A stretch of 64,000 nt of DNA from Vermamoeba vermiformis (Eukaryota), in contig JBEWZL010000101.1 in the NCBI GenBank assembly GCA_045837725.1, forward strand, positions 186,001 to 250,000, in the 5' to 3' direction. The translations under genes and the position numbers were made by a program. The notes under the pieces were generated by a model, which saw only the letters and a program-made list of their open reading frames with translations, was not told the origin of the DNA and searched no databases. Positions 1-27,500 of the stretch are shown here, piece by piece. Numbering within the stretch: the first letter of the stretch is position 1; every line of letters begins with the position of its first letter.

Positions 1-376
1 GGCTATTAAGATTAAAAATCGTCGCGTAAAATTCCAGATCGGATTTTGAGATCCAACTTTTTTTGCATGGATCTGTAGTTTAAAAAATATTATAAATGTT
101 TAGCGTACCTTTTCAAAGTGAAAATTATTTTTTACGTTCCAGATCTCGAGATCAGGATGTCGACAAACAATCAGCCGTTCATGTTCTGAAGTCAAGGCCA
201 TGCATTGGACACTACCAATCTCTGCCTTAACAAATTGACAAATATTTACTTGCATGGCTGTATGGTGTTGATGTCTCTCTAAAATATTGAAATAAAATTC
301 ATAAATCGGATCGCGATCTGATTTGTCGAGTAATTATTTTGCCTATTTACAAATTCAACACGGTACAATAGACACA

Positions 377-2687
377 CTACACCTGCTTCTTTTCATCGAG
401 CTTGTCAGTGCTAGAGCTCAGTCGTTTGATCGTCGCTTCCAACATGAGTCGACGACGCGTGTCTGGATCTGGTGTCACCTCGCTGGGGGTGTCGGGGCTA
501 GTGGGGCTCATATTAGCTGTGTTTGTATGACTAGTGCTTGTATGAGTAGCGGTGTCAGGGGTGTCTGTTGCAGCGGTACTGCGGTCAGTGTCACTCGGCA
601 CTGAGGGCTGACTGTTCACACGCGCATTAGTGTTGTTACTGCTCGCTGTGTGCTGAGTACTGGTGTTTGTGTTGTTACTAGTGTTCATATTGTTACTAGT
701 GTTCATATTGTTACTAGTGTTCATATTGTTACTAGTGTTCATATTGTTACTAGCACTAGTATCGGTACTACTCGGCACGGTGTTGTTAGTCGCATCGCTC
801 CCCTCCGCACTCTGCTTGTGCTTGTACAGACTGCACACAACGCCGATCAGTATACCTGCGCATTCACTGAACGGTATATCGCACTTACTCGCGAGCTATT
901 TTTAGCATGGCCTGTTTACGCATTTGAAAGCGGTCGTGTCGCTCCTGCGAGCTGCTGCCAAATTTGTCTTTGACTTGTGGTGGCAACATGAGCGGTGTCG
1001 ATGTGGTGGCACTTGGCACTGCACTCGGCGTGACAGGTGTCGGCGAGGGTTGAGGAGCGACAGGTGTCACAGGTGTATCACGTGATTGAGCAATGACAGG
1101 TGTCACAGGTGCAGGCTGTTGGATGACAGGTGCCACCTCATTATCCGGTGCATCGTTGTTGTTGTTGACAGGTGTCACAACGCGTCCTTCAAGAATGTTG
1201 TTGATGGTCTGATCCACACTCAGCGTCACACTCAAGTCCTGCACGATGCTCTCCACGGCCATGGTCGGGAACACGTCTTGCACCGCACGAATCATCTCCG
1301 CACTCACTGCACCGCGCGGCACTTGATAGGCCGGGGCACGAATCACCTGCACGGACATGTTGGGCAGCCAGCCCCAGCCATTCTGCGCTCGACCAGGGCC
1401 CTGCTGACGTGGCGGGGCAGCATTGGTGGGCAAGAGCGAGCGACGACAGGTGGGACACGAGTGATGGTACTCGAGCCACGAGCGGAGACAGTTGCTGGCA
1501 GAGTGTCAGTACTGACATTCACTGAATGGCGTTCACTGAAACACTTACAAGTGGAACATGTGGCCGCACGGCAGACGACGCGCACCATCGAGTCGTTCGC
1601 GACAAATAGCGCAGCTCTCGTTCATGGTCGCGAGTTGTTCCGCAGTCACGTGCTCGTAAGTGCGCTCCATGTTCTCCGCGAGCTGCTTGTAGTTGCGATA
1701 GGCCTGTATCTTGTCGCGCAGATTGTTGAACACGATGCGTATGTGCAGGAATATCAGCATGTCAATCAGCGTGAACGAGATGCCGTGCAGAATCAAGATC
1801 TGCACGTAATGCGCGAGGGTGGCGAGCAGAATGATGGCGTCAGTGAAGAACTCCACCATGTACATGTACTTGCCGCGCTCCTCCCACGTGCCATTGCCGT
1901 GCAGATCCCACAAGTGGATCGTGTACTTGCCGAGGGTCTGCAGCGTGTCCACGAACAGCGTGAAGCACTCAAAGGTGAGCAGCAGCAGCACAGCAGCCCC
2001 TGCGTCCCAGAACACGGTGAGACAGAGCGCGAACCAGCTCAGATTGGCGAACAGGAGCAGCAGCTGCAGCGTCAACATGCGTCCGTGCACCGCTGCGGGG
2101 GCATTGGGCGAGTAGGTGACGAGCTGCGCGGTGTGGTGAGTGCGAGGCTCAGTGAAGGGGTTGGGACTTACATTCTGAAAGCGATCTTTGGACAGGAAGC
2201 TGAAGAGGTGCATGAATCCGACAATCGAGAACCAAATAGTCCAGATCAAGAGTTCTTTAATACTCGGTTCGAGAATAGCGCCGATAAATATGACTTTAAA
2301 TAGCGCATAATTCGTCAGTTTTTCCCACACTCGCTGCAAAATGAAGTCAAATGAGGGCTGGTGACGTGTAACAACGCGGATGTATTCTCGACGTACCTTG
2401 CTTTCAGACTCCAACAATCTGCCAAAAAATACATATTGCAATAAGGTTCCGAAGAGGACGAGAATATTTATCGCTTGGTTAGCCAAAATCTAGAAAATAC
2501 GAAAATTAATTAAAGAAAAGCAAATTAAGCAGCAACAACTAGCACGTACAATCAAATAGGTCTTGGAGCGCAGTACGAGTGCGAGTGCGGAGGAGAAATT
2601 GCCGTCGACTTGCTGCCACACATTCCACAGACTGAGCCCTGTAAAGGCGAGACTCATGGCAGAGTACCACAGCACAAACGAGTTCAT
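377..2687 (-). CDS. AMFR: gp78/AMFR-type ERAD E3 ubiquitin ligase (multi-exon)
   Basis: N-terminal TM region; RING-H2 CAICRERLDGARRLPCGHMFH; CUE domain (MIRAVQDVFPTM...DLSVTLSVDQTINNILEG); G2BR-like SSQERHDRFQMRKQAMLKIAR; C-terminal VIM-like RRRLMLEATIKRL. Confidence 0.9.
672..753. repeat. 18-bp tandem repeat (ttgttactagtgttcata, about 4.5 copies) encoding (SNNMNT)n in the gp78 disordered tail
   Basis: Perfect tandem copies seen directly. Confidence 0.95.
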
Positions 2688-2849
2688 TATTGTTACGCTA
2701 ATATAGTCTATTATACTACAATGTAGTAGCTGTGATCATCTGTGTTTGTTGATGCTGTCAGCGGAATTGAAATGAACTCCGAAGCTGGGCCTGGAAAAGT
2801 TTTAAGTGACGCCATTCACGCACACAGCACTCAGAGTGACATATAGACC

Positions 2850-3464
2850 ATGATGAATAAAGAGATTATTGATGTGAGCACACGGCAGGGCGAGATGTTC
2901 GTCAAGGTATGCTGGAGTCTGATCTGATCACCCCAACTAATGTCGTTCTGTCCACTAGGATTTTTATTATGTAATGTACGACTCCCCTCAGCGTGTGGTA
3001 AGTATATAACTGCATTGGAGCCGTCTGGTGAATTTAAATAATTAATATTCAATAATAATAATATAATTATTGCTAGTCCATCTTCGGACTGTACAAAGAC
3101 GATTCAGTGATCGTGTGGAATGGCAATGTAATTACAGGCATGAACAACATACAACAGTTCTTCAAGCAACTGCCGCCAACCAGCCACTCCATTGAAACAC
3201 TCGACTGTCAGCCCATATTAATCGGTGCGTATACCAAGCAGTAGTGCAGTTATCCAATGCGCGGTACTGAACACGAGTGCAGGCCCCGGCAATGCGATGA
3301 TATCAGTGGTGGTGTCGGGCAGTGTGGACTACTACCTGTCGAATCAACAGGCGCAGCAGTACAGCTTTCACCAGACCTTCATTCTGCAGCAAGACCTCAG
3401 CTCGCAGGCCAAGAAGACGTACTTCATTGCGCACGATTGTTGTCGCTTCAACAAGAAGAATTAA
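2850..3464 (+). CDS. NXT1: NTF2-family protein, NXT1/p15-like (multi-exon)
   Basis: Spliced translation MMNKEIIDVSTRQGEMFVK/DFYYVMYD...LYKDDSVIVWNGN...LPPTSHSIETLDCQPI...VVVSGSVDY...FHQTFILQ...YFIAHDCCRF. Confidence 0.8.
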
Positions 3465-3629
3465 ACTCCTGTACAGTACTACGCGCATCATCACTCGTTC
3501 TAGTGCCGCAGTATCTCTGTAAATATGTAATCACCGAGCTGTGGTGCAATCGAGACATTTATTAAGGGAGGCTGTACAAGGGAGGGTGATTCGTATTTAC
3601 ATCGTGTGCGACTAGGACGCACTAGTGAC

Positions 3630-4172
3630 TCATTTGCTGTTGCTCTGCTCGCTGGTGCAGTGTGCGCGCAGTTGTGCGTGCAGCTGTTTCATCAGTTCGA
3701 GCTTGACCTCGCTCGATGCCATCGCTAGCAAGAGTGTGAGACACATAGTGTGAGACACATAGCATGGGTACACTATCGACTACTTACCTCGCGCATCATT
3801 AGACACTGCGGAGAACAGTTCTTCGAGCGTAATGTTGTCAAATCCCTTGGCTTTGATGATTTCTGTCATAATCACGTTACATAATGCGATATTGATAGCC
3901 AATGACATACAAGCACTTACCCACGCAAGAGTTCGTCACCATTTCTCTCCAGCCGTTCTCCGTCAGCTTGCTGCGTGCCCAATTTTTCAATCTACAAATT
4001 TAATCATCAACTTCCATCAAATAAATCATTTAATATTCTCCATAATATTTTGAAATTTAATCACTCCAGTGATTTTGACAAATCAATGGATCAAGAACGA
4101 CTTTTACTTTTCGCGTTCCCCAGTTACAGCAAGGTGTTCATTAAAATCAGCTTTTATACTCTCTGCATCCAT
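3630..4172 (-). CDS. ENY2: ENY2/Sus1, SAGA DUB-module and TREX-2 subunit (4 exons)
   Basis: MDAESIKADFNEHLAVTGERE/RLKNWARSKLTENGWREMV/EIIKAKGFDNITLEELF/SEVKLELMKQL matches the ENY2 pattern; GT-AG junctions. Confidence 0.85.
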
Positions 4173-4340
4173 ACTATGGTTCAGTACAAAGCGACAGGTC
4201 CGATAAATAACAATTTTGCCCCCAAAGAATACAAGCCACAAAAATTCAGGCAGAATGAGTGCAGAAAATTCGCCGCGGCGAACATGAGCATTTAGCTTGT
4301 ATTTAATAACAGACCAGCACACTACCTTCAATTATCAATA

Positions 4341-6595
4341 ATGTCGGATAAAAAGGAGTACGATGTTAGCGAATTGGCCGCTTACGACAGCGATGAAGAT
4401 GTTGCTGTTGCCGAAGCAGGAAACAAAGACGGTGACGTCAAAAAGTATGCACAACAAAATAGAGAGTGAACATATGCATATATTTTCGCCAAATAACGAA
4501 TTAGAAAATTATAATAATTTTATTTTCCACATGCACCAAAATCTAAAAATAATTATTTTTTAGGGACACACACGTCGCAATTCATAGCTCTGGTTTCAAG
4601 GACTTTTTGTTGAAGCCGGAACTTTTGAAGGCCATTCAAGACTGCGGTTTTGAGCATCCTTCTGAAGGTAAGTCGCATTTGCACTTTTTACGAAAGAAGC
4701 CTTAACGAAAGTTTAAACTACAACTGATACCACGCCATATAACTGAATGAGTCACAATTAACACCTATTCGCTCCCTAGTGCAACACGAATGTATTCCCG
4801 TAGCTGTGTTGGGTCGCGATGTGATCTGCCAAGCGAAGAGTGGTATGGGCAAGACAGCAGTCTTCGTCTTGTCTATTTTGGATCAGTTGTCTGGTCTCAA
4901 GGATCAAGCTACTGCCACGCAAGACAAGAGCAAGGACAAGGCACGCTGTTTGGTCCTGTGTCACACTCGCGAGTTGGCGTACCAGATCTGCCACGAATTC
5001 GATCGCTTCAAGAAATACATGCCCTGGATCAGAACTGCCGTGTTCTATGGTGGCAAGCCCATCACTGACCACCGAAAGCTGCTCAAAGAAGAAGTGCCGC
5101 ACATTGTCATCGGCACTCCTGGCCGTGTGTTGCAATTAGCCACTGAAGGTGCGTTGGATCTGAGTCAGATCAAGCACTTCATTCTCGACGAGTGCGACAA
5201 GATGCTCGAAACTCTCGGTAAGTCCATTTGAAAAGCACTTCTGTGGCAGTCACTCATGTTCTCGTCTCAGAGATGCGCCGTGACGTGCAAAAGATCTTCA
5301 AGTTGACGCCGCACAACAAGCAAGTGATGATGTTCAGCGCGACACTGGCTGAAGAGATTCGACCCATCTGCCGCAAGTTCATGCACAAAGTAATTATCTT
5401 CCCGGCTGCTTATTTAAATATATATATCAAATCGGGCCTCGCTGTTGGATTGGGTGATCGGCTAGGCACTGCAACTGAACGACGACGTGGTTAATAATAA
5501 CTAATAATGATAATCACCTACCGCTCTGTTGGTTCAGCAAAGTGCGAATCCACTCCCGCGACATATGAAACCAATGTGACACGGAGGCTAAGAGACATAG
5601 AACAAAGAGAGAAGTGATGTGCACGCGTTGCTGACTGCTTAGACACTGCGCATCTCCCCCAATCGCGCGAAGAGAGAGAGAGCAGATCCAGAGTAGAGAT
5701 TAGAGCTTCAAATTATGCATCGCAATTGCTGAGTCGGTTTCGTTAATTTTAATCTTAAATCACCCGCATTTTTATATTCAAATATTCCCGCTCCTCCAGT
5801 ATTTGCAGAATAACGAAGCCTTGGAACCCGTCACCGAATATTAACAGCACAGCCCACCAATAACAATATTATTCAACTCGCACGCAGTTCTGCACCTCTA
5901 CCTGCCGTATAAAACTAATCGATTGCTTTTTGTCATCAGCCTATGGAAGTGTACATCAACGATGGTGCCAAGCTGACCTTGCACGGTCTGCAACAATACT
6001 ACGTGGAACTGACCGAGCAAGAGAAGAACCGCAAGCTGATTGATCTGTTGGACTCGTTGGAATTCAATCAAGTCGTCGTGTTCGTCAAGTCCGTCAGTCG
6101 CGCCACCATGCTCAACAAGATCCTGCAAGAGATCAACTTCCCTTCTGTCTGCATTCACGCTCGCATGAGTCAAGAGGAGAGGTAGGTCATTGCACATTAT
6201 TATGGCGCGTGTGATATAGAGTGCTCACTTGCTTGGCAGAATCGATCGTTACAAGAAGTTCAAGGACTTTGGCTCGCGCATCATGGTCGCCACTAACTTG
6301 TTCGGTCGTGGTGTGGACTTTGAGCGCGTCAACGTCGTGATCAACTACGACATGTCTGAGGACCCTGACACCTACTTGCATCGCGTTGGTCGTGCTGGTA
6401 GATTCGGTACTAAGGGTTTGGCCCTTTCATTCATCTCATCGAAAGAGGATGCCGAAGTGTTGAACCAAGTTCAAAAGCGATTTGTTGTCGATATTCCGAC
6501 CCTGCCTGAACATATCGACACATCTACTTACAGTAAGTCTTGTCGATCGAGTTTTAGCATTTCAAATCTAATGTTTAATTACAGTGAACGCTTAA
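4341..6595 (+). CDS. DDX39: DECD-box RNA helicase UAP56/Sub2 (DDX39)
   Basis: [39 protein letters not shown] motifs. Confidence 0.97.
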
Positions 6596-6840
6596 AACCC
6601 CATATCGCCTAGAATGCACCGGTTGTAATTGCTTGGTCTTAATAAAAGAGTCTTTTGTTGTACACCGCAAGTAGCCGTTATGCCCAAACCGCGCCAAAAA
6701 ATTTAAATTATTTTGAGTCACACAACGCTGCACTGCCATTTGTTCTGTGCTGCGCCTTGCGTTAATACAAAGGCATTCATATATTTGTCGCACCTTATGC
6801 CTAGGTAGTATTTGTTTAGTTGATTGAAACGTTAAATAAA

Positions 6841-8175
6841 ATGAAGAAGACCCCTTCTAGAAGAGAAGACGAAATTAATACGGATAATAATGATTATAAT
6901 AACAACGAAAATAATAACAGTGATGGCATGTATTATCCAGAGGACGAGGAAGATTATGTGCCCAGCTGCACTCCGTTGCCGAGCGAAGAAGAACTTCAAC
7001 AGCCGTTTGTTGTCGATCAATTATTTGAATTCGATGCACCACAGTACTTTGATTTCGATGAATTCGACAATCCTAGTTATCAGCAACAGTACTTCAATAT
7101 CTCGATGAATCCACTCACTGGGGACATTACCACCACACGACGACTGTAAGTGATGCAAGAACCATTTCAATTTATTATCGAAACTAAATAACTTGCTAGT
7201 CTTAATGACGTCGATTGGTTTTTGAACGAACATCCAGAACTAGAGCCGCTAGACGAAGTGGATTTCAGTTACGAGAGTGCAAGTCGTGAGAGCATTGACC
7301 AATCACCGCGCAGTCGTGCTGATACACCAACTGATGACAATATGAAGACTCCACCCACGAGTTATCACACGCCACCACACAACACACCAGATGCAGCACG
7401 TACCATGAGTCCGTTGATATTCAAAACACCTCAACGACGTCACATTGCCACACCGCTCTCACCTTCACTTGCCAAATTAGGAAAAGCAGTGCGAGTCGTG
7501 AGTGCCTCGCCACTAGCACCGCTGACACCAAGCGGCCTCGCGTCACCACTGCGCAGACCACTCACTGGCCCCGCAGCCAAGCCAGGCGTGAACGGTATTG
7601 TTCCGCCCTCGCCGATGCGCGTCACACTCACTTCGTTCACTGAACACCGAACTCAACCGCTGTTCACTGAAACGAAGACTCAGCCAGTCACTGCACCGTC
7701 CTCCCCTCCCAAGTCACTGATCCCTGTTGTTCCGCCCTCACCCAAGCCAGCAGCGAGCAGTATTGTTCCGCCCTCACCCAAGCAGTCCACACTGATCACC
7801 GCACAGCCCCGTCGCATCGTGCGCACCAGTCCGACCAGTGCCGAGACAAGTGTCACCACCAAGCCTGCGACACGTGTCAACACGAGTGCGGTGCGTGTGG
7901 CCAAAGAGAACAGACCTGTCAATCGCGTGGGGGCCGTGACGAAAGTGACAGTGCGCTCCTCCACGCAGCCCCGCCCCTCCGCGCGCAGTGAGAGCAGTGC
8001 CGAGCAAGACGTGCTCAAAGAAGTGACGCGCATGTTGGCCGAGCACAACAAGAAGATACGCGATCAACACCGCTCGCAGGTACTCGAACGCGCCAAGAAG
8101 CCGAGTGTGCGTCAAGTGAAGCAGTTTGCGAGCACTGAACGCACGCGCAGTAAGAGTACCTCGCCGCTGCTGTAG
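6841..8175 (+). CDS. Disordered S/T/P-rich protein with an N-terminal TPX2-like Aurora-binding motif (2 exons; intron 7146-7199)
   Basis: FEFDAPQYFDF...NDVDWF resembles the TPX2 Aurora-A-binding motifs; many SP/TP sites; the intron joins ORFs 6820-7149 and 7222-8175 in frame. Confidence 0.6.
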
Positions 8176-8304
8176 CCGTGTACTGGATGGCGGAACAACA
8201 ATTTGTCACGTGTCGAGTGAAATTTCACAGCACGTGATTGTACAGTGTGAAGAATCATGTAAAAATAAGCAATTAATCGGACACAAGCCCAAGCATCACT
8301 ACAT

Positions 8305-9061
8305 ATGCGCGCAGTATTGTCTATTGTAACGCGTAGAGTGTCGCGCGTGAGAGTGACTCGATCGCTGTTCTCCGTCACACGCACTGTTCCGAGCACTCAC
8401 AGCGCACTGTTAACTCGCGTAATTATTCAAATATATTTGATATATAATAGTGTGCCTTATTCACTTCTGTAGGAGCCTCTTTACATTACCCAAAGCTCTC
8501 CACTGCGTACTTGCATCAGATCTGCTTTGTACTCCACTGAAGACAAGAAATATAAGTGAGAACAGTACAACATTATATAGCGCCAATTATTCACAATTAA
8601 TATGATGCAGAAACACATTCGAAGAAGATCCGCACAGCTTTCACGAGGTCGTTGATGCGACGCTGCAGCACTTGCTCGAACAGTGCGAACAGCTCGAGAG
8701 TCGCGACATTGCTGGCTTTGACTGCGTGGAGCACGTGAGTACGAGGGGGCAGCGTGACAGCTCGTTGACTTGAATTGACAGGACGGCGTGTTTGAACTCA
8801 AGCTCGGCAGTCTAGGCACCTTTGTGATCAACAAACAGACCCCTAATCGACAGTTGTGGTTCTCGTCGCCCATCAGGTCAGTGCGGAGCTGCAGATCTGT
8901 TCGTAGTCTAACTATTTATCAGCGGTCCGAAGCGCTACAATTACGATATGGAGACTAAGACATGGCGTAACACACGCGACGGTCATAATATGTTTGTCCT
9001 ATTGTCTGATGAACTCGCGCGCTTGTTGGGTTTTGAATTCAAACTGAAAGAGCTCAAATAA
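8305..9061 (+). CDS. FXN: Frataxin with mitochondrial presequence (multi-exon, missed by the ORF track)
   Basis: R/S-rich N-terminus; [39 protein letters not shown] signature. Confidence 0.93.
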
Positions 9062-9095
9062 ATATCATTTAACCAAGCAACACTGCCACGCGAGC

Positions 9096-11015
9096 ATGAG
9101 TCTGCCAATTACATTAACAAAGCATCGGGATGTATACAAGTCCTCTTTGAATCGAGAACAAGAGAAATCGAACAGACTTCAACGCGTGATCCAGATCCGA
9201 AAGCAATTGCAACGCGACACCATTCATGCAAAGCGCTTTAAACCCGATCCAGGTAATGTGGAAATAACATTCTGTCAGTAATATATCAGTATTAACTGTG
9301 GATCGCAGAGCAAGAAAAAAAATTAATTGATAAAGCAGCATTGAAAAACACTCTAGAGCAGCTCAAGGTTCATCGATGACATATTAATATAGACGGTAAT
9401 TAACTTGATATGACAGTCCAAGCAGTACAAACAACGAGCAGCTGCGCTAATCGAGTTGCGGCGCGCGTTGTGTCAGGACGAGCACGTGATCGAGCACGTG
9501 ATCAGCGCCCACGCAGTACCCGCCCTGCTGGTGAGTGCACGACGCGCGAGGCCACTAGTAACGGATTGACAGGAGTTCTTGACTGACCGCGAAGAGCGCC
9601 TCAAACTCGAAGCAGTGTGGTGTCTGACGAGTGCGTACCAGTTATATACATAGATATATATATACTGAGAGAGATATATATGATGAACCACGACTGACTC
9701 TCTCTCCCACGGGCAGATCTGGCCAGCGGAACAACTGAGCAAGCCTCGCACGTGCTGAATGCCGCACCGTTCTTGCTGCAGTTCATCGAGCAGGGCAGTC
9801 CAGTGAGTGTTCAGTGAATGAGTGGTGTGTGAGTGCGACTGACAGAGTTTGACACGTGTCAGGAGTTGCGCTACCAATCGCTGTGGACCGTGGGCAATGT
9901 GCTGGTCGATGACGCGCACAACACACACCTCGCGCGCAAGATGAAGCGACAGTTGCTGGCACAGGGACTCTGGACCACTCTCTTGCACGCCATTGGTCAG
10001 GTAACGCTGCTGTCACCTGGGGCACTGTTTGACACTGTTGACAGCCCAATCTGACATCTATCACGCACTGGGTGCTGACCAATCTGCTGCGCGGTGTCAC
10101 GTGGCTAGCTGCACCGAGCAAAGGCCCTGCGCGATTGATCACGTGGTCCGAAATTTCAGCGCTGATTGAGCATTGTTTGCCTCGACTGGAGCTAGTGGAT
10201 GACACGTGTCAGAGTCCCGTGACCGAAGAGTGCTGGCTGTTGAGCGTGCTGTACCAACACCTCGATGTGACAGCTGTCACTCTCAATGCGGACATGTCAT
10301 TCGCTGCCCTTCATCGTCGCGTCATTCGCTGTGTGGTGCAACACATGACACGTGTCACTGATCAAGGGCAACATTTGCCACTGCTGCGAGGTAAGTGTAG
10401 TCGATGCCCAAATATGGTAATAACACGTTACAGTGCTCAATGTGTTGCTCGTGGATTGGCACGTGTCAGTGTGGCGTGAGTGCGGACTCGACGAACAATC
10501 ATTGCTGTCACTGATCATGTGCTGTCTCACTTCGAATGCTGCGTAAGTCTCACTTTGACACGTGTCACTAACTGATAAACGACAGGGTGCAATGCGAAGT
10601 ACTATTTTTAGTAGCAAATATGACAGCCAGCGAGGAATATTACCGCGAACTAGTGTCACGCGATGCAGCCCTGGTAAATGAACTGCGCAGAGCCCTGGTG
10701 AGTGGCACGCGTGATGTGACACGTGAGGCCATGTACTGCGCGGCACATCTCACGCTGAGTGGCACCCATGTGACACGTGTCATTGACCGTGCTGTAGTGC
10801 AGCATGTGATCTCCGTGCTGACCACTGCGTCAGACTCTGAGTCACAAGTCTTGGCGCTGACATTGCTGGAGATTGCAGCGAGATACATCGACCAGGGCCG
10901 TGCTTGGCTGCACGAGGCGCAGTTGACCGCACACCTCGCACAGCTCACCGCGCACTCGGAGGAGGTGTCGCGCGCTTGTGCGCTGTTTGCGACGTACTTG
11001 ACCCCTGACCATTAG
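9096..11015 (+). CDS. Divergent importin-alpha-like ARM-repeat protein (TMCO6-like)
   Basis: IBB-like basic N-terminus; LKLEAVWCLTNLASG, QSLWTVGNV and WVLTNL ARM motifs after splicing. Confidence 0.7.
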
Positions 11016-11192
11016 TGAGGTCCATGTTGCGGGTACTGGCCATTGGGAGATTTCGCAGTAGATTTCATATTTGCGCAAAATAATTATCAGCTGGCCCTTG
11101 TCGCTATTATTATTACTTGTAATTGTTGACAACAACATTCCCTTGTACATACTCATTGTCTTATTATATAATATACGGAGTGTAGCATAGTC

Positions 11193-12500
11193 ATGACAGA
11201 TCCCAGCAAACAAAACTTGGTAAAATATTTGTATTTGACCGGGTTAGTGCGTGTATTCATTATTATTATTGCAGATCAATCCATTCGAGACGGCAGACGA
11301 GATGAATCCGTTCTCGCAAGGTATTCAAGAGTACAATCCATTTCAAAATCAACCACAGCAACCTCAAGTCGTACAACCAGTAGTATCATCCTCAACTCCT
11401 CAATTTCAAAGTGCGTATCGCTCGCTGCATAATTATAATTAATTTAGAATATTTTTCGTATTTTTCTATTTTTCGAATTTTATTTCGTATAGATCTCACT
11501 CACACTCTGCTGCCTGCGAGCACCAATACTAACAACCAATAGCTCCTAGCCAGCCCGTCGCATTCAATCCCCCACCTCAACCCGACAACACTTTGACGGA
11601 CGTCGCCCTCGAGCCAGGTACTTGCTAACTGAGCCCTCTAGTCCTCTGACTCGCTACTCACCGCACTATACATATATATATACAGAGATACAACCTGGCT
11701 CGCCTGGTGTGACTCGCTATGTGGTCACTGAAGAGATGGATCAAGAACGACCGCAAACACGCTTCTACCAGCCCGAACACTACCGCCAGTTCTTCAATGT
11801 CGATACGAGCGATGTGTTCTTCAGATTAATACGCGCACTGTTCCCATTCAAGCGCGACTTTATTGACGTCGTGCGCAAGAACCCAGATTTGTAAGCTCGA
11901 GCCGCGTGACAGTCGCGAATGAGTACTAATCTCGGTGCATATACAGCTACGGCCCTCTGTGGATCACAACGAGTCTCATCTTTATGATGGCAGCTGCAGG
12001 CAATCTCGCTTCATCCCTCACATCCAGCAACACGCAATGGTCAGTACACAGCGCTAGTTAATGCAGATACGACGCGTATTGAACTGACAGTACCGACTAG
12101 GCACTACGACTTCAAGATGTTGACTTACGGCAGCATCATACTCTACGGCTACTCGTTCTTGGTGCCGCTGTTGTGGTGGGGTCTGTTGCGCTGGATGGAC
12201 ATTGAGATCACCCTCATGCAGCTGTTGTGCATCTACGGCTACTCGCTCTTCGTCTACTTCCCCATTGCGATACCCTGCATATTGCCCTACGAGTGGCTGC
12301 GCTGGGTGCTCGTGGGCATTGCGTGCATCATCAGCACCGTGTTCTTGGTGCTCAACTTGTGGATCCCCTTGCGCGCACAGCTGGGCAAGGCACTGTTCTG
12401 CTTGTTGGGCATCGTCGCACTGCATGTAGGTCTAGCACTGGTGTTCAGACTCTACTTCTTCGCTTTCGATGATCCCGATCAGGACATTACCACCAACTGA
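11193..12500 (+). CDS. Yip1-domain Golgi membrane protein (YIPF1/2-like)
   Basis: YRQFFNVDT, NPDLYGPLWI, LLCIYGYSLF motifs; multiple TM helices. Confidence 0.9.
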
Positions 12501-12612
12501 GCTGTTTGTTTGTAATAAATTCTTGTTTGTTTGTGTAACCACAGACCTCATCTTAATAACACTATGAATGCCTAGAGCACTAGTATTGCAGCAATAATAA
12601 CAAGTCCTCGCC

Positions 12613-13998
12613 ATGACCAACCTTAGCGCTGCAGCGTTCGATCACCTGCGCAGATCACTTGCTGCCGTAAGTCAAATGACGAATATTACAATTAATGGTC
12701 TAATTATTCGCATATTAGGAGGGTAATAAGATAATTCTAAATGAATTTGGTGAAGTACAAGTTACCACAGATGTGTTAGACATTATTCGCAGTTTGAACT
12801 CCAAACACCCCATTGTTAAGCTATTAGAGGAACATATCAAGTATATTTATGTAAGCTACGAATGCTATACTAAGTGCCTAGTGCTGAGTCGCATAAACAG
12901 ACACGGTGCCACATCTCCTCTCCGCTAGCAGTCCTGTTGCTCATCGCACTAGTAGAGCGCTCAACGACCCTCATCGAGCAGTATAAGATCACGCCCTATC
13001 AATTCGAGCAGTATTGGCAGCACCTGCTCGCCAACACACGCCAATACACGAGCAGATGTGCTGTGCAGCCAGACCCCGCACTGCTGCAGCGCTACAGCAC
13101 GCACTGTCTCAGCACGGCACTGTTGCTGTCACGTGACACGATTGGACACCTGTCAAACACTGCCCTCCAGCTCATTGGACAGCACTATCACGTGCTCGAA
13201 GTGACAGGCAGTTGCGTGTCAACCACCGTGCTGCATCACGTGACAGTGCTGAGTGACACGTGTCCAATCACGTGCTCAGACTTGCGTGTCATGTGCATGA
13301 GTGTCACACTCGAGCACGTGATTGCACCGCTGTTTGAGGCCCTGGTAGGCCTCGCGCCAGATCTGCTGTTGTGTCTGGCGATTGACACGGCTGTCAAAGC
13401 TCGACTCGCGCAGTATGGGGTAAGTGAGTGACACTGAGTGACACCTGTCTGACTCTAATAATAGATCACTGCTCTCGTGGTGACAGCGGAACAACTGACT
13501 TATCTCGCACTGAAGAGTGGCGGAACAATTCAAACAACAATCGATCACGTGATTAACCGCGATGAGAATCAGCTCGGGCACGTGACACGCATTGAAGTGG
13601 AGTCAGACGAGTGTTTGCAACAATATTTGATCTCATTCACTGAATTCCCCAACACACCACGCGATCAACTCGTTCATGAACCAATCACAGTGCTGATTCG
13701 TGCACCACATCTGTCACTCGCGCATCAGTGTCGCCGAGCTCTCTTCGATACCGTCGCACAACTGACACGTGTCAAACAGAGCACCGTATTGCTACTCACT
13801 GATGACACGTGTCAATCACTGGCACAGCTCGCCCCAGCAGACAACGAACTCTTGCGCGAGGTGTGGGCACGTGCGTGGCTAGAACTGCCAGTGTCACGTG
13901 ACGCGGTGCTGGACAGTCACGTGCTCAATCACGTGATTGAAGCCTCGCTGCACACCGCTCTCAAAATACTGCGCGTGGATCAAGTGCTGTCAATGTGA
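12613..13998 (+). CDS. Divergent TCP-1/chaperonin-like protein (possibly BBS6/10/12-type)
   Basis: GGNKIILNEFGEVQVTTDVLDIIRSLNSKHPIVKLL at the N-terminus, ITVLIRAP, and C-terminal TALKILRVDQV are group II chaperonin features; no GDGTT seen. Confidence 0.55.
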
Positions 13999-14083
13999 CA
14001 CGTGTCTTTATTTGGCAGTTAAGTACTAGAGACAGATTGAATGTCAAGCTGCAGTGTGACAGGTGTCAAAGTGAGCTCTGCGC

Positions 14084-15216
14084 TCATTTCTCGTGCACCC
14101 ACTTGTCGCGGTTGCTGTCGTAAGTGGCCGCTTCCTTTTCATTGAACCACAACGCAATCTCCTTCTGGGCCGAGTCAGCGCTGTCACTGCCGTGAATAAC
14201 TGCAAAGATTGGTCAGTCACTGGCAGCACTATATTAGGACACACGTACTGTTTCTGCCAATGTCAACAGCGAGATCACCGCGCACAGAGCCAGACTGAGC
14301 CTCGTCAGGGTTAGTTGCACCGACCAATCGTCTGCCACCAGCAATCACGCCGCGACCCTCCCAGATCATGGCCACCACGGGACCCGAGCTGAAGTAGTTC
14401 ACCAATGAGGGGAAGAAGGGACGCTTGGAGAGATCGCTGTAGTGTTGTTCAGCGAACTGCTTGGTCTGTCACGTGACAGGTGAGTGCGGAATAAATAAAT
14501 GCAATGTTTGACTTGAGTACGTACGGGGGTCAAGATCTTGATGGCCACCAACTTGTAGCCCTTGCGTTCAAAGCGAGCAATCACCTGTCACACGCAACGG
14601 TTATCTCTATTGTACTGCACTAGCATTCAGTACCACTCACCTCACCGACGAGATTGCGCTGTTCAGTGAACACGTTAGTACGCAGCTCAATACACTAGGA
14701 GTCAATCGGAGGACGTACCTGCACGCCATCAGGCTTGATAGCGATGAAAGTACGCTCGTACTTGGTGCCGGGCAAGCCAGTCAAAGGAACCTTATCACCA
14801 GCAGCAGCGGTGAACTTGTTGAGCAAAGGAGAGCTAGATTCAGATTGAGCAAGGGTGCTGCTGAACAAAACACCAGCGCCAATAACACCACCGGCAACGA
14901 GCAACTTGGTACCGTTGCGACGAGCAACTTGAGTGGTAAGGCGGCGAGAAGCAACTAAAAGACGATTTTTTCAGATTGGCCAAGAAAGGAAAACAAAAAT
15001 AAATCTTCAAATTATCTATTGTTGCAACCAAACAAGAATAATAATAGACGCTTGAGGATGTAAATTTTAATGTTAGTACTTACCCTTGAGGCTTCCGGCA
15101 GACTTGGAGCCTAAACAATAAGTCAGCCACAAAACTTGTAGAAGTGTGTAGTCTAAAAAGATATCCGAGTGCTACGTACCAATTTGAAGAGCACGACGGC
15201 AAGCGTTAGCAAACAT
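14084..15216 (-). CDS. Nucleoside diphosphate kinase with mitochondrial targeting extension
   Basis: [33 protein letters not shown] catalytic His; presequence [11 protein letters not shown] plus a hydrophobic segment. Confidence 0.93.
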
Positions 15217-15427
15217 GATGATGTGTAGTTGATGAAGTACGGTGAGTGAAAGACTGGCCAAAAATCAAAAATTTTTCACGCCACAAAGTGCCGCACACTG
15301 TGATTGGTCCAAATCACTCCATGGACTGTGCTGCGCGATGAGATGTGGGCGAATAGTGCCAGAGGAGCGTTACACTAAGAGTCATTACAATAACAAAGGG
15401 TTTACTGAGTGCGAGTACAAGGCAGCG

Positions 15428-16012
15428 TTATTCAGCCCCCAGAGGGTTGCGCAGGACCAATATGACAGAATCGCCGCGCAAAAACATCTTTGAAATGAAT
15501 CGCTCGCGCGTCACTGGCTTCACTTTGCCCTTGCTGCCCTTGGGTATCTCGGTCCAGATCTCACGCACATTCTCCAACACCATGTTGCAGTGACGATCAA
15601 AGGCCTTAATACGCGCCAACAGCTTCTTGTTGTTGCGCACATTGATGAGCACTTGTGTTTGATTTTTAACGCTTTGAGTGAGCAGTGCTAAGGGTCCATT
15701 CTCGAACTGATCTTGTTCTTCTTTCAGCTGATGTGAATGCATTATTAATACGCGTATTATTTATATTTATCATGGATATATTCGGCAATAGCGCTATTTA
15801 CTAATCGAAAAATAAAGAAAAAAATTAATAATAAATTATTATTTCAATTATTATCTGCAGGTCTATAACGCTGTTATAAATATGCTACATACCCTCTCTT
15901 CTTGAGTTTTTTCTGCTTCAGGTTTTTCTGGTCTACCGCGTCTATAATAAGGTTTAAAGCGATCAACACTTCTGCTCGGATTCGAAGAGTTAGCTTGAAC
16001 GTACCTGGACAT
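15428..16012 (-). CDS. SNRPD2: snRNP core protein SmD2
   Basis: [46 protein letters not shown]...[16 protein letters not shown]. Confidence 0.96.
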
Positions 16013-16218
16013 GTTGCTTTTACAAAAAAATAATGAGAAATTGAGCACAGTCGTGCAAAGAAGTGTGAATGTATTGCACGGCGTTCTTTCTCCTAGAAAC
16101 GGTGCGCCAATTAAGCCGCGCAATTGGTTAAGTCACGCCACTCAGTCACGCACTAGCTGACGCGCAGAGGCACACATAACACAAAGGCGATCAATATAGG
16201 TCAATGGAATAATAGTTA

Positions 16219-19200
16219 ATGGCTTCAGAAACTAATCAAGTGCGCGATGCTAGCGCGAGTCAAATCTCGGTAGATGCTGAGGATCAGTTCATGTACGGCA
16301 TCGCTCAAGAATTAAATAAAAAAGGAATATGGAACAGACAACTCCCACGACACGAATATATGATAGTAGAGGCAGCTCTAAAATCAGTGCAAGCGTGGAA
16401 AGAATTTTTCGAAATTACTCTTGACTTGGAGTCGAAAAATAAGAACAACAACTCCACCTCTGCTAAAGCTGCGAGCAAAAGTGCTAGTTCTAAGAAGAAA
16501 CGGCCCAAGAAAAGCAGCACTTCAAGCAGTAAGAAACGCACCAACAACAAGAAAGGTCAAAAGAAAGACGACGAGACAGAGCTCGACAACGAGAAGAGCA
16601 ACGACGCACCTGTGACTGACGAGCGGACAGACAAGACTGAGGATGATGATGCTGGCCGTTACGTGGAAATATTGAAATTTCGAGTGCGATCGATTGTGTT
16701 TGATTACATAGCTTCCAAGCATCTCTTTGACTCTCAGAGTACAGGTAATGACACACATATACGGAGTGCGCGAGCTGATTGTTGCGCCTAGCAGAGGACC
16801 ACAATCCCGCTGAAGACATCTTCGTGACGTACGACGAGCTGCTCGATGATGACGACCACGTAAGTCCAGTGCGTGCTCATGACGCGTGACTGACCACCCC
16901 TAGCTGCTGCAAGAGGAGGACGAGGACGATGAGGATGCAGAGCCCGTGCCTGCCTTTAAGATCGAGATTGCTGGCAACAAAGTGCCGCAAGAGAAGAAGA
17001 ACGTGAATGCGAACAGAGAGCTGCGCAGTCTGATGCCCGATGTGAAGCAGAGCACCACCAAGAAGTGGGTACGTCACTGGCTGTGCATCTGTTGATAGAC
17101 ACGCGCTGGTACTGACACGCGACAGGAACTCACCTCGTCTGAAGAGCTCAAAGATCTCTACGCGGGCATGGAGCGCGTGCTGCACGAGCTCAAGAACTAC
17201 AAGGTACTGCCTCGCAAACACTGTCGGTGTGCAGTAGCTGATCGGTCCTGTTGTTAGGAACACTCGTATCCGTTCTTGAAGAAAGTGTCCAAGTCCGAGG
17301 CCCCTGACTACCACGAGGTCATCAGCAATCCCATGGACCTCGCGACCATGACCAAGAACTTGCACAACTTGCAGTACGTACTCGCTGTGTGGTATGTTGT
17401 GTTCGCTCACCTCTTTGCAGCTATTGGAGCAAGGCTGAGTTTCAGAGTGACTTGGATCTCATGTACGCCAACTGTCGCAAATACAACACTGAGCCGGTAA
17501 GCAGCATCTGCACCATATGCAGCGCCATAACATTGCACTAGGAGGGCAAGATGTACTTGGAGCACGCTGATGCCATGGAAAAGCGCACCACAGAGCTTAT
17601 GAAGACCGTGAAGGACTACGATGTGAGTGCCGACAAAGAGCGCTTGTTGGAAGAGGTGAAGAAGCGCGAGGGACAGCGTGAAGAGCGCAAGAGTGACGAT
17701 GTGCCCAACAAACGCCGCACCGAAGTGAAGCAACGCATTCAATTCTACCACGAACACCCGTACGTCACGCACAAGAGGTCGCAGAAGAGTGCTCAAGTAC
17801 GTGCACTGTGCCTAGCGAGATCTCGTGTGCTGATTTGTTGTTGCAGGACCCAGTCACGGAGTTGCCGAGTGCAGCACAGCTCGCAGAAGTGCAGCACAAG
17901 GACTACATTGAGCTGCTGTTGAGCGGTGTTGATGCCCTCGAACTCACCGCGCCGTAAGTGCACTGTATGTGTGTATTCTGACGCGCTAACGTGTCCTCGT
18001 ATTAGCGCTGAAGAGGACGCAGATCTCTCCAAAATGTTACAACGCATCACCGCACAACATCAACAGCTATTCAACCGAGCAGATCCAGCCATCAGACCGG
18101 GCAAATTAGATCCGGTGGTGAATGAACAGGGCACGGAACTCGAACACGTCTCGGTGGCACTGAATGAAGAATTGAGCAAGCAGATCGTGAAGCAGTCCAT
18201 TGCAGTGATATTGAATCAAAACAACATTGGAGGTACGGCACTCGCCTCATATATACACAATTCTCTTGCTCGATACTGACACGCGCAGGCTGCGAGCACC
18301 AAGCACTCGATGTGTTGACTGACGTGCTCGAAGACTTCATGCTGCACATTGGACGAGTCGCGCGCTCGTATCTCGACTTGCCAGGCAGTGAAATGAGCAG
18401 TCTAGACGCGAGTGTGAAGGCAGTGAGTGATCTGGCTGGCGAGTGCACTGACGGCATCAGAGAGTGGCTGTTGGAGAAGAAGCGCGACGAATCTCGAGCA
18501 CTGCGCGAGGCACTGATTGAAGAGGGCAGTCGTCAGGCCCTGCACCGCGAGATGACACCGTTCATTGCCTTCACGCGCAAGTCCAAGCCCGCACCGCAAC
18601 TGTCCAATCACCACATTGGCTTCTATCAACATCAACAACAAGCACAACAGGCCTTGCAACAACAGCAACAACAAGCGCAGAATCAGCTGCAACAATTGCA
18701 ACAACAACAGGCACAGATGCAACAGACGCAAGGACTCACGCAACATCAACTGCTGCAGCTGCAGATGCAACAACGAACCCGCATGCAACAGCCACAAATG
18801 CACCCGCAAATGCAAGGTGCGCAAGTCAAGAAAGAAGGCATGCCACCGCAAGGAGCACCACAACGCTTCCCACCCACCGGACCTCCTGACATGACCAATC
18901 CCCATGCTCCACGCATCAACAGTTTCCCGCCTAATTTGCCGCACAATCCTGCAGGCACCCCTGGCGCTGACAATGCACTACGTCGCAGTGCTAAGCGACG
19001 CAAAGGTGAGGGAGGAGAGCCGATACCAGTGGGTCCTACCATCCCCAGTCCCGAGACAGATGCACGACGAGTGCGCCCTACACGCGGTCGTCGCTCCTAC
19101 CCCGAAGAGGACTACTTGGATGACTCGCAGCTGCGGCACTTGGATGAGATGGACAAGCCAGGACACGGTGCACCTGAGATGCCAGCGCATCACATCCCTG

Positions 19201-19508
19201 CCTCCTATCCTCCCCACGCAGCAGCCCCTGAGATGATGCAGCCGATGAATGCAATGACTTATCAGCCCCCGCCTGGTGCGCAAGTGCCTGTTGGACGAGG
19301 ACGAGGAGCACCGCCCATGAATAGACCAGTGCCCATCACCAATCCACCACCAATGCCGCCACAACCTGTAGCTATGCCGCCTCAACCTATGCCCGAAGAA
19401 GACCCTAATGCCAAGGTAAGTTTGTTAACCCTTGCTTGCATGCTTGTTCTAACTCTGCGAATCTAAAAGCGAGGCAAGAGGACACCGCGAGGACGAGGGA
19501 AGAAGTAA
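16219..19508 (+). CDS. SPT7: Spt7-like SAGA subunit (bromodomain, histone fold, Q/P-rich tail)
   Basis: [44 protein letters not shown] bromodomain resembles fungal Spt7; histone fold [13 protein letters not shown]. Confidence 0.8.
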
Positions 19509-19903
19509 ATTAACTTACAGATGTTTTATTTTTGATGTATGTAAAGTAAACTCGTTGCGAACTGTAGCCAGCTCGGCGGTCTTTGGGGATGGTACACGGC
19601 AAAGTGAACGAAACACCATTTCAGCTGCTTTCCCGAAACATACGGAATTACCGATTGTTAACAACAAGACTAACAAGGTGTTTTAGTTGAGTTGGGTTAG
19701 GAGGTGATCTAAAAATGTAACGCGTTGACCAATCGCGTACCGTCACCGGAAATTTCTTGCTTTTTGTTCAGCGAAGCGAGATTTTGCGAACAACAATCAA
19801 TTAGTTCCAGCGAAAACAGGTTAGTTACCACAAATTATTTATTGGTTCTTTTGAGCGTTTGTTTAATCAAGAGTAATTTAGAAACAACACAAACACATTT
19901 AAA

Positions 19904-20939
19904 ATGGCTATGCAAAGTGTTAAGTTGGTGGTTGTCGGCGATGGTGCCGTTGGTAAAACCTGCTTGCTCATTGCTTACACTAGCAACTCATTCCCCAAGG
20001 AATACGTCCCTACTGTAAGTATTGGGTTGGTTATAATTAATATTTACAAGCAAATACCCAATTTTTTGAATTCGAATTCAAATCTAATTCCATTTCTTTA
20101 CCGACTGCAGGTCTTTGATAACTATTCTGCCAACGTACGTGTTGCCGATAAGACAGTTTCTCTCTCACTTTGGGATACTGCCGGTGAGTTATTTTATATT
20201 CAAATTGTAACGATCAAATTTCAAATCTTTTTCTTTTGCTCGAATTTAACTAATAATACTTTGCAATTATAGGCCAAGAAGATTATGACCGTCTTCGACC
20301 TCTCTCTTACCCTCAAACTGATGTATTTTTAATTTGTTTCTCTGTCATCAGCCCTACATCTTTCTCCAACGTTAGAACTAAAGTAAGTTGTTTTCAATTT
20401 GACAAGGAGAATATATATTGATTTTATTCCTTAAATAGTGGTGGCCCGAGGTTACTCATCACTGGTAAGTTGCTCAATTAAATTGAATCAAAACAAAAGG
20501 AGTATCCGCGACGAATTGAAACAGTCTGCCGATAACCAATAGCGATACATGCTATTTATTACTGTTTAATACAACCGATTCCGTGAGGCACAGTAGTGCC
20601 GAAAATTGTATTCAGCTAAGCAGCATCTAGAAGCTAACACTTTGCTTTCATTACAGCCCCACTGCTAAGATCATCTTGGTCGGTACTAAACTCGACTTGC
20701 GTGAGGACCCCGAGAAGTTGGAGAGCTTGAAGGAGAAGGGTTTGTCTCCCATTTCCACCCAACAAGGTGAAGACTGTGCTCGTGAGATCAAGGCCGTCAA
20801 GTACATGGAATGCAGTGCCCTGACACAAAAGGGTTTGAAAGAAGTGTTCGACGAGGCTATCAAGGCCGTCATCATTCCCAAGCCTAAGGCTGCTACCACC
20901 GAGAAGGCCCGTCGAGGACGTGGTTGCTTGGTCATGTAA
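19904..20939 (+). CDS. Rac-type Rho GTPase
   Basis: [44 protein letters not shown]; polybasic tail and CAAX (CLVM). Confidence 0.96.
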
Positions 20940-21229
20940 TAATATTATCCCTTTCTTACTAGAGCTTGTATAATTGAGTGGCTTTAGTCGAATTAATATA
21001 TTTGTCATTATAACTCTTATTTATAAATACCTTGTTTTTTGTTTTGTAAACTAACCATCAGATCTGTTTTCTGAGGTGTACCTTTGTAATTAAACCACCG
21101 ATAATACCTCAAAATATAACGTGCAATGTCAAATTCTATTCGAGTGCTGTTGTGCTTGTGATTTGTAGGGTGGCAAGTTCTTGTTGGTTGTATTGGCCGA
21201 TATTTATTTATTATTTTAAATTGACAACA

Positions 21230-21870
21230 ATGCTACGTCGTGTCACAACTTTGTTAAGACCTGTTGCTACTAAGCGAACAACTAAAACTGCTAGCTTGTT
21301 CAGTGTCAGATCGAGCCGAACAAAAACGGCATCGAATCTCATTCAGACAAGAACCCTTCTCGGATTATTTAATAAGAAAAAACCTGTCGAGGTATACATT
21401 GTTAACTAGAATTTATGATGTTTTCTTGGACGGTTGTAATACTGAAATAATAATTATTTTATTATTTGAATTATTTGCCCTTCTTATTTGGCCTTACGTA
21501 ATTATACCGTAATAATATGGTATGCAGTATTTTAATATTTAATTAAAAAGCACGAGGAGCCTGGCCAAAAGACAGCCATGGAACTGATCGCCGAAGTACC
21601 TCCCATTGAAGTTGATGGTCGCGTTGCTGCTTGCGACGGAGGTGAGTATAGAAATATCATATATGCATTGAAGTGCTTAATATGCGGTGTACAGGTGGTG
21701 GACCATTGGGTCACCCGCGAGTGTTTATCAATTTAGATCCGACTACCCCCGAACAAGCAGTGCCCTGTGGCTACTGTGGCTTGCGATTCATTCAAAAAGG
21801 TTACTATCGCGGCTTAAAGGCGAAGAAGGACGAAGTATTCACACGCAAGACTGATCAAGAGGAGTTGTAG
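21230..21870 (+). CDS. NDUFS6: Complex I zinc-finger subunit NDUFS6
   Basis: Presequence; [37 protein letters not shown]...CGYCGLRF. Confidence 0.93.
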
Positions 21871-21999
21871 AATGTGTAACTAATTAGTGCTATGTAAAGA
21901 ACCGGTATGCTCAACCCTGCATTGTATTGCGCGATAGACATCGAGGAGTGAGAACATTAGAGGAGTATTTACAATCGATTGAACACTGTACACGGAGCA

Positions 22000-23759: not shown

Positions 23760-23939
23760 GGTGGTCTAGTCAGTGCGCTAACAAACAAGTGCTTCCAAGT
23801 CCGCGCAGTCGTGGTTAAGTCTCGCCGCAAAATTGCCTCCCCACAACCAGCCAAAAATCCCGTTGCAGTTACAAAAACTTTTTTTCGCGCCATTGCAGCA
23901 TTCGTCGACGAAGTATCGAGTGAGTGCAACAACTGCAAG

Positions 23940-25688: not shown

Positions 25689-25782
25689 ACAGCTTGCACA
25701 CGGCTGAGCTTTGCATTGCGCGTTCATTTCATTTATTTGTTTTTATTTGTTTGCCATAATAAAGTAGTATTAGTTACAACTG

Positions 25783-27256: not shown

Positions 27257-27500
27257 ATGAAGTTGCTAATAGCTTCGACTACATTCAACGAGTTGTGTTT
27301 GTTCGACAGGAACGAAATGAACGAGTGCCAAACAAGACTTAGTGCCTCCCAGTCTGTTACTGTAGCCGTGAACGAACCGTACCTTTACTCAATAAGCGGC
27401 ATTCGTTATTGAGTAGCATGGCAACAAACGATGTTGTCCAAGCCGAGATCTGCTTTCTTATTCACAATTTACTACTCGGACAATACTACAGGTGCTATAT

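Follow-up and report, generated by a model that had tools for sequence, protein, structure and literature searches.

Why does one short palindrome recur so often in a stretch of amoeba DNA, and what has it done to the proteins encoded there? The window is a stretch of 64,000 nucleotides of Vermamoeba vermiformis (assembly GCA_045837725.1, contig JBEWZL010000101.1, positions 186,001 to 250,000, forward strand). It holds 12 exact and 10 one-mismatch copies of the palindromic 12-mer TGACACGTGTCA, and 50 first-order Markov simulations gave expectations of 0 and 0.22. A sequence-only reading of the window had proposed that a force acting on DNA creates the motif and that purifying selection on proteins filters where it persists. 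We found the palindrome to be a genome-wide element of gene bodies, apparently undescribed, that rewrites weakly constrained proteins while constraint filters the copies. The proposal is therefore supported but incomplete, as the motif is chiefly intronic in fast and slow genes alike and position also decides where it lies. The best mechanism, at a probability of roughly 40%, would be gene-conversion drive favouring protein-bound alleles.

Abundance and position of the palindrome

In the genome searched (43.3 Mb, 309 contigs), which is compact and eukaryotic with short spliceosomal introns and TTAGGG telomeres, TGACACGTGTCA occurs 2,793 times and its reversed control 4 times. Placement relative to genes was assessed with a gene finder self-trained on 699,810 bases, comprising the window and further genomic stretches. 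This sample of about 700 kb is non-random: two GC-rich zones are over-represented, and it contains 10 exact copies per 100 kb compared to 6.4 genome-wide. The gene finder recovered 5 of 5 clean GT-AG/CT-AC RNA joints among the 15 joints listed (118 further joints). No listed joint spans an intron that bears the motif, and the RNA reads mapped to the window came from a strain about 92% identical.

Among the 72 exact copies in the sample, 52 were intronic, 14 exonic and 5 intergenic, and 1 lay across a stop codon, which corresponds to 33.9 copies per 100 kb in introns, 3.2 in exons and 4.8 in intergenic DNA. Inside introns the copies had no fixed place, with distances of 3-385 nt to the donor and 1-394 nt to the acceptor. 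Inside genes they did: none of the 75 intronic copies with at most one mismatch fell within 600 bp downstream of the start codon, a stretch holding 64,204 of the 153,315 intronic bases (P about 2e-18). This exclusion is strong, not absolute. Position, a factor that the sequence-only reading had left aside, strongly predicted where copies lie, both along the gene (over 600 bp past the start codon) and along the chromosome (within a GC-rich zone). GC content at third codon positions (GC3) climbed from 0.47 to 0.56 across the first 800 bp of genes.

Copies were also found between convergent genes. Genes with two or more exact intronic copies were not in excess (11 vs 7.4, p=0.056). Host genes were functionally mixed (glucan synthase, ABC transporter, Dus, Suv3, kinesin, kinases and MCCC2), with no common function across the 72 exons scanned of the 108 listed (27 of 29 genes from lower-GC regions).

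Variant spectrum and predicted reader

Genome-wide counts fell in steps from the exact form (centre CC, 2,793) through the form with one central C>G change (CG, 1,060), which is TGACAGGTGTCA and the second commonest variant, to the form with both changed (GG). The GG form was seen 124 times, and independent half-sites predict 101. The central C>G change accounts for 22 of 56 single-mismatch copies. The CpG-transition variant reached 62 copies and a bZIP-type variant 57. The transition variant is rare, though decay of a relic or deamination would favour it, and the profile is therefore that of a dimeric reader. The sequence-only reading was too narrow in saying that the force "creates" the motif: sites are also maintained, since they are kept in orthologous introns, and the variant spectrum suggests a sequence-reading protein rather than mutational bias.

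It is highly improbable that the palindrome derives from a transposon, as a relic of its end or a footprint, or that it acts as a splicing signal or RNA hairpin. Its mostly intronic placement, a possible 4-bp stem and the uneven orientation of the asymmetric variant (16 antisense, 5 sense) would suit such readings. However, one transversion variant outnumbers the transition variants 17-fold, position within introns is free, copies lie between convergent genes, and exons hold 11 of the 16 antisense cases, which tolerance of the tripeptide TPV in linkers accounts for. The flanks of the copies share no common extended sequence. The transposon reading in particular is largely refuted. An extended 20-base motif had 0 matches in viral contigs.

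The palindrome is perfect and has a central CG, and the genome encodes, by catalytic motif, two DNMT1-like, one DNMT2-like and one DNMT3-like proteins (L084, L086, L087, L089; the family labels are our assumption). The DNMT1-like gene on C11 itself bears exonic motif copies. A methyltransferase might mark the palindrome, and methyl-directed repair might turn near-matches into matches, as in the methylation-repair model put forward for HIP1 of cyanobacteria (PMC4390886). We regard this as improbable. The commonest variant here alters the central CG, whereas HIP1 deviations sit at the outer bases (PMC4390886); CpG is not depleted (observed/expected 1.25-1.47 in introns); and several unrelated words, partly free of CG, follow the same rules. 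HIP1 is otherwise alike (PMC5861425, PMC4390886) in being a hyper-abundant short palindrome inside and between coding sequences that is kept at orthologous sites, and its conservation has been interpreted as selection (PMC5861425). The palindrome here differs in standing about 700-fold over its control and in a graded half-site spectrum that varies at the centre, and no short-range periodicity was found up to 1.5 kb.

The palindrome is very probably the site of a dimeric DNA-binding protein reading two TGACA(C>G) half-sites, a prediction drawn from the motif itself. If so, a TALE homeodomain protein is the likeliest reader, at somewhat better than even odds, and a basic helix-loop-helix (bHLH) protein the next. 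Ile50 is linked to TGACA recognition in TALE homeodomains, and PKNOX, TGIF and yeast Cup9 have sites of comparable type. The genome contains 10 Homeobox_KN matches, 7 of them with WFINA, and encodes TALE proteins with Ile50. TGACAC outside an E-box was enriched about 2-fold in distal introns, those beyond the 600-bp limit (57/24.0, 28/13.4), and the 8-bp direct repeat TGACACTTTGAC was found 8 times vs 0.0; half-sites beyond E-boxes, including this repeat, favour TALE over bHLH. TGACAGGTGTCA is the listed motif of MEIS3 (PMC5449588). As in TALE dimer sites, two inverted TGACA half-sites stand two bases apart. The sites here differ in preferring CG at the centre, not GG or GC, and in lying by the thousand in gene bodies, not promoters. 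The case for bHLH is that CANNTG is present in all three main variants, that the genome has 5 HLH matches, that CACGTG without TGACA flanks was also enriched in distal introns (25/6.6, 19/5.2), and that HES5-type motifs in the MEIS3 table are similar (PMC5449588).

One TALE homeobox gene is present twice in inverted orientation on C263 (L071 1284-1731, L078 2260-2707). Exact palindromes flank the predicted homeobox exons, at distances of about 600 bp (before) and 400 bp (after).

Rewriting of protein sequence

The features of the window that bear on its proteins are given below, with strand where the feature has one. Exonic and intronic placement of copies is by motif scan and gene model.

1..45000: right part of the GC-rich, intron-poor zone of this contig (C101), where degenerate sites and exonic copies are crowded
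1031..1177, minus strand: five variant sites clustered in a RING/CUE ubiquitin ligase gene, within its linker, where they give VTPV-type repeats
9096..11015, plus strand: divergent importin-alpha-like ARM-repeat gene (model of 9 predicted exons, 499 aa; 5 exact copies and 1 one-mismatch copy)
9850..9861: exact palindrome at the end of ARM gene intron 9803-9862; its final A and the next G make the acceptor
10200..10211: exact palindrome, exon of the ARM gene, DDTCQ
10346..10357: exact palindrome, exon of the ARM gene, MTRVT
10556..10567: exact palindrome, ARM gene intron 10543-10585
10771..10782: exact palindrome, exon of the ARM gene, VTRVI
12613..13998, plus strand: divergent chaperonin-like gene (model of 377 aa; weak Cpn60_TCP1 match, E=4.6e-4, below cut-off)
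13763..13774: exact palindrome, exon of the chaperonin-like gene, LTRVK
13803..13814: exact palindrome, exon of the chaperonin-like gene, DDTCQ
13996..14068: two one-mismatch copies, one at 13996 that supplies the stop codon of the chaperonin-like gene and one at 14057 at the 3' end of the convergent NDK gene
22596..22607: exact palindrome, intron 22561-22616 of DMAP1 (22000-23759, minus strand)
36974..38468, plus strand: flavoprotein-type oxidoreductase (palindrome exact at 37822, LTRVI, and at 38099, DDTCQ; with one mismatch at 38137, VTGVI, and at 38193)
39597..39608: exact palindrome, MCCC2 intron 39576-39625; one mismatch in the relative L022
39944..39955: exact palindrome, MCCC2 intron 39908-39971; exact in the relative L022

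Recurring peptides had been reported in the ARM, chaperonin-like and oxidoreductase proteins, and these were recovered: DDTCQ once in each (10200, 13803, 38099), (V/L/M)TRV 2, 1 and 1 times, SRD 1, 2 and 3 times, and HVT 1, 2 and 0 times. SRD and HVT are not products of the 12-mer, as had been thought; their source is the related word TCACGTGA/GTCACGTG. The motif was said to lie in different exon frames, and two frames are indeed used; the third is impossible because it begins with TGA. Nine of the 14 exact exonic copies read xTRVx and 5 read xDTCx. All 5 of the latter are DDTCQ, and the GA flank that this requires was present in just 7 of 114 flanks of non-coding copies. Protein context therefore selects or seeds the copies seen.

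Exon placement in the divergent genes held for most copies, but 2 of the 5 exact copies of the ARM gene are intronic (9850, 10556). The exact copies in conserved MCCC2 (39597, 39944) and DMAP1 (22596) are intronic by the gene models. Confinement to introns in conserved genes stands as a tendency: the filter leaks, with one-mismatch copies within a TruD match and a WD40 match and exonic copies in the DNMT1-like gene. Motif density was lower in constrained sequence, as anticipated. In 137 distal exons of high-GC zones (coiled-coil matches of one protein excluded), 25 of 27 near-exact exonic copies lay outside Pfam stretches, which cover 31% of bases (p=0.004). Half-sites likewise avoided Pfam stretches (p=7e-8), and none of 4 control words was depleted in them.

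Motif-coded peptides were among the most enriched tripeptides of high-GC distal exons: SRD (40 vs 7.9), HVT (22 vs 3.8), TPV (27 vs 6.4), HVI (15 vs 2.7) and VTR (23 vs 7.4). RDK and DKE were also among the top tripeptides, with no motif to explain them. Enrichment of motif-coded tripeptides was confined to high-GC zones; low-GC distal exons gave SRD 11 vs 11.0 and HVT 6 vs 4.6.

The oxidoreductase is a case in point. Its nearest relatives outside the lineage are prokaryote-like and 24-30% identical, and it was probably acquired horizontally, later gaining introns at its 5' end, to judge from its sequence and gene model. An orthologue alignment, a check proposed beforehand, showed that the peptides are lineage-specific, being missing in 10 of 10 distant homologues. 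With this and the density comparison, both refuting conditions set out by the sequence-only reading were put to the test, and the proposal withstood them. In near-invariant columns, where at least 9 of the 10 distant homologues agree, word-coded residues were changed in 9 of 11 cases compared to 24 of 79 others (p=0.0016), with 3 of the 9 falling in a poorly aligned stretch. For example, C-x-K-V-I is replaced by V-T-G-V-I.

DNA uptake sequences (DUS/USS) of Pasteurellaceae and Neisseria resemble this pattern: a short word read by a protein is repeated hundreds to thousands of times, motif-coded tripeptides are enriched, and poorly conserved genes and residues are preferred. Findlay and Redfield (2009, PMC2817400) interpret them as the outcome of molecular drive acting against protein selection. 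Tripeptide enrichment is about 2-fold proteome-wide in the bacteria (PMC2817400), and here about 3-6-fold and limited to distal exons of GC-rich zones. Uptake sequences belong to naturally competent bacteria whose uptake machinery prefers the word; the palindrome is eukaryotic and mostly intronic, is one of several words and avoids the first 600 bp, and any drive here would come from recombination repair, not DNA uptake. The palindrome acts on proteins like a DUS, yet it is not one, since its host is a eukaryote with spliceosomal introns; it belongs to neither DUS nor HIP1.

Two eukaryotic phenomena are also related. In duons, exonic factor sites shape codon choice, and in genes accelerated by GC-biased gene conversion, a recombination-linked bias fixes amino-acid changes. 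Here whole specific words accumulate rather than single GC changes, and these words supply the highest-ranking tripeptides of a chromosomal zone. A literature search showed, among the matches listed, neither motif-driven proteome rewriting in a eukaryote nor a description of this motif, with most subscription journals outside its reach. The exact 12-mer turned up in two papers, both concerning Ebola virus by title, and TGACAGGTGTCA in one; none of the 20 titles listed out of 35 on Vermamoeba-like amoebae dealt with a motif of the host genome.

Maintenance and turnover in relatives

The oxidoreductase and MCCC2 of a relative that differs at 46% of fourfold sites are present on a metagenome locus (L022). 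Both MCCC2 intron copies are kept there, one exactly and one with one mismatch. In 18 pairs of orthologous introns, the introns of L022 are otherwise scrambled relative to the window; the longest word in common (15 nt) is the motif, as is one of the two shared words of 14 nt. By this alignment, intronic sites are maintained at orthologous positions.

Exonic copies of the oxidoreductase turn over in part. In L022 the copy at 37822 is lost synonymously, that at 38099 is lost by D to A, and that at 38137 is kept; one better copy is present, at 38249. Of the four copies with at most one mismatch, 1 is unchanged in the relative, 2 are one base further from the consensus and 1 is more decayed. Close oxidoreductase sequences, many from near-identical strains, retained LTRVI in 17 of 17 and DDTCQ in 14 of 17. 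An 80% identical orthologue of the chaperonin-like protein kept LTRVK, DTCQ and SRD. Fourfold sites in words differed at 11 of 32 positions vs 362 of 780 elsewhere in L022 orthologues, too few to call. Near strains are present in one water and one soil metagenome.

Retention of both MCCC2 copies despite such divergence also suits selection. The sites may be functional intragenic elements, enhancer or chromatin-organising clusters bound by TALE, bHLH and MADS proteins, which perhaps suppress cryptic initiation past the promoter-proximal nucleosomes. Exonic copies would then be dual-coding and tolerated where the protein permits, in a genome with very short intergenic gaps. We consider this possible but doubtful. 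It accommodates a variant spectrum graded like an affinity profile and the fairly even spread of exact copies along chromosomes. The edge at about 600 bp matches the first 3-4 nucleosomes marked by N6-methyladenine (6mA) after start sites in several protists (PMC12695648). Against selection, the host genes have no common function, the packing of six copies into 930 bp of one gene with weak expression is hard to justify by redundant regulation, the replacement of conserved residues is hard to pay for, and chromosomal zoning is unexplained.

Other words in the same patches

The palindrome is one word of a vocabulary, whose factor names (CArG, MEF2-type and others) we assign on the presumption that the sites resemble known ones. 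In high-GC distal exons, compared to synonymous shuffles, enrichment was seen for GTCACGTG (88 vs 18), the MEF2-type word (23 vs 0.3), CArG (16 vs 2.2), GCCCTGGT (24 vs 6.8), GCGGAACA (18 vs 4.0) and TTCACTGA (14 vs 4.1). CArG boxes were enriched in distal introns (28 vs 3.6), not in proximal ones (4 vs 2.8). Of the MEF2-type words in distal introns, 26 of 49 were merely branch point plus acceptor and were removed by trimming.

Five of six words clustered with the palindrome at p<0.05, and the word patches decay over about 0.6-0.9 kb. Neither helical (10.5-bp) nor nucleosome-scale phasing was found between words. Clustering of mixed factors is the usual grammar of enhancers and counts for selected sites. 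Against them, strong words were scarcest where promoters lie, at 0.42 per kb between divergent genes vs about 1.7 per kb in distal gene bodies.

A second word family, CAGATC/AGATCT, presumably a GATA-type site, was enriched in introns, exons and intergenic DNA irrespective of the 600-bp rule. It was scarce in high-GC distal introns.

Chromosome zones

C101 and C3 each showed one broad GC peak, about 0.50-0.52 vs 0.37-0.40 on the flanks. Peaks of GC and GC3 were tent-shaped (C101 about 166-206 kb, C3 about 420-480 kb, C11 about 560-770 kb); the first 3 kb of C3 and C11 at 560-770 kb are GC-rich too. On C101 the peak starts some 20 kb to the left of the window and reaches about window position 20000. 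The window covers the right part of this zone, and the earlier reader met the motif so often for that reason. The zones are gene-dense throughout, with fewer long introns, and intron density is halved in them, from 5.3 to 2.7 per kb of coding sequence (243 genes, rho -0.31, p=6e-7). That the peaks are centromeres is disfavoured, as they are continuously gene-dense with no gap above 2.3 kb among the listed genes.

The start of C101 (L090, 1-3000) is the reverse complement of the end of C3 (L107, last 3 kb), with 2,960 shared 25-mers. This shared terminal repeat is perhaps subtelomeric.

Exact copies were spread fairly evenly along chromosomes. TGACAGGTGTCA was crowded in zones tens of kb wide on C3, C8, C11, C12, C13 and C30 among the first 100 of its 1,060 places, and the C8 cluster lies 48-108 kb from telomere repeat. 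This crowding of degenerate sites could mean that the arrow runs the other way: bound sites would position recombination or pairing, as hotspots or pairing-centre-like zones, and raised GC and intron loss would follow. The nearness of the C8 zone to a telomere repeat and a patch width of about 1 kb agree with such a role. So does a comparison of near strains (15 longest usable pieces, one repeat piece dropped), which showed more differences inside motif patches (21 of 1,131 bases) than elsewhere (32 of 6,174). We think it unlikely. Sites that trigger breaks should be converted away, which is the hotspot paradox, whereas orthologous copies persist here; and weak constraint on motif genes would equally well produce more strain differences.

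Proposed gene-conversion drive and its alternatives

Under the preferred mechanism, gene-conversion drive, a protein-bound allele would be cut less when recombination breaks arise; it would hence serve as the repair template and be over-transmitted. The drive would scale with local recombination and not with gene function, a hotspot paradox in reverse, so that any strongly bound word could spread in patches of about 1 kb in distal gene bodies. Spread would be strongest in zones with raised GC and intron loss, since GC-rich, intron-poor zones would, we infer, recombine more. Purifying selection on the protein would remove intolerable copies, and weakly constrained genes would be partly rewritten.

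Such drive would explain the shared patches of unrelated words, the tracking of GC at two scales, the filling of a bacteria-related gene and the peak of rewriting in the zones. The mixed functions of host genes, including the bacteria-related one, indicate that sites are independent of gene function. Efficient selection in high-recombination zones should shield proteins as well as sites, which drive would not do. Two Spo11/TopoVIA-type matches are present in the genome. We hold more tentatively than the mechanism as such that binding proteins drive their own sites to fixation, overwriting even conserved residues without regulatory benefit, and we give a similarly cautious grade to the chance that the mechanism is new. 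Both drive and selection may hold, with exact intronic copies functional and degenerate exonic clouds driven.

Several observations weigh against drive or against the evidence assembled for it. Distal introns held 13.2 exact copies per 10 kb at high GC and 4.6 at low GC, and a difference of only 3-fold looks more like a required element than recombination-scaled drive. Conservation in introns fits selection equally well. Among near relatives, conservation of word-coded residues (33 of 52) did not exceed that of other variable residues (154 of 237, p=0.87). TGACAC outside an E-box was equally enriched in proximal introns (21/7.0, 12/5.2), so half-sites alone ignore the 600-bp rule. Held-out sequence, a weak test on 57 pieces of 3 kb with genes cut, gave exceptions to that rule: one duplicated intronic copy at 482 bp and exonic copies at 321 and 577 bp. 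Three vocabulary words were chosen by eye in the window, itself part of the sample. Bound sites of PRDM9 and of fission-yeast M26 erode rather than spread, and no described case of drive favouring bound alleles was found among the matches listed in the literature search, within the same limit on journals.

Whichever mechanism applies, protein divergence here depends on chromosome and gene position. Some "fast-evolving" genes may owe their speed to the motif force, which would mislead phylogenetics and tests of selection in this lineage. Should drive be the cause, conserved clusters of factor sites would arise without regulatory function, a counterpart to the hotspot paradox that would undercut the equation of conservation with function. 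If selection is true, a compact protist genome would hold thousands of conserved gene-body elements under a sharp promoter-distal rule.

Motif-bearing genes of the window

The ARM-repeat assignment rests on ESM Atlas features (0.97); Pfam Arm gave no match on 4 pieces of the gene, two exon queries found no homologues, and a PDB sequence search gave no meaningful match. The importin-alpha label is one that we presume from the N-terminal and ARM motifs. Splicing at 9862 preserves the reading frame. RNA depth over the gene was 0.1-1.3 per direction. Silencing of motif-rich genes was considered and rejected: RNA of the ARM gene was low, yet the motif-free region at 16-18 kb was similar, and MCCC2 and DMAP1 carry sites.

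The chaperonin-like gene had the densest vocabulary among the listed genes of C101 and C3 (43 words per kb of distal gene). The sole longer match of its exon, P0031, failed in BLASTP. In the convergent NDK gene, the one-mismatch copy at 14057 lies in the predicted last intron or 3' untranslated region. Pfam barely detects or does not detect the ARM and chaperonin-like genes, and an identical 15-base word is common to both (about 9726 and about 13486).

A lysine-rich gene at window positions 23940-25700, which we take to be DEK-like, splits near 25221 in the assembly. Near this position RNA reads of the related strain omit 2 bases (22 of 28 and 44 of 54 reads), which indicates an assembly error or a strain difference.

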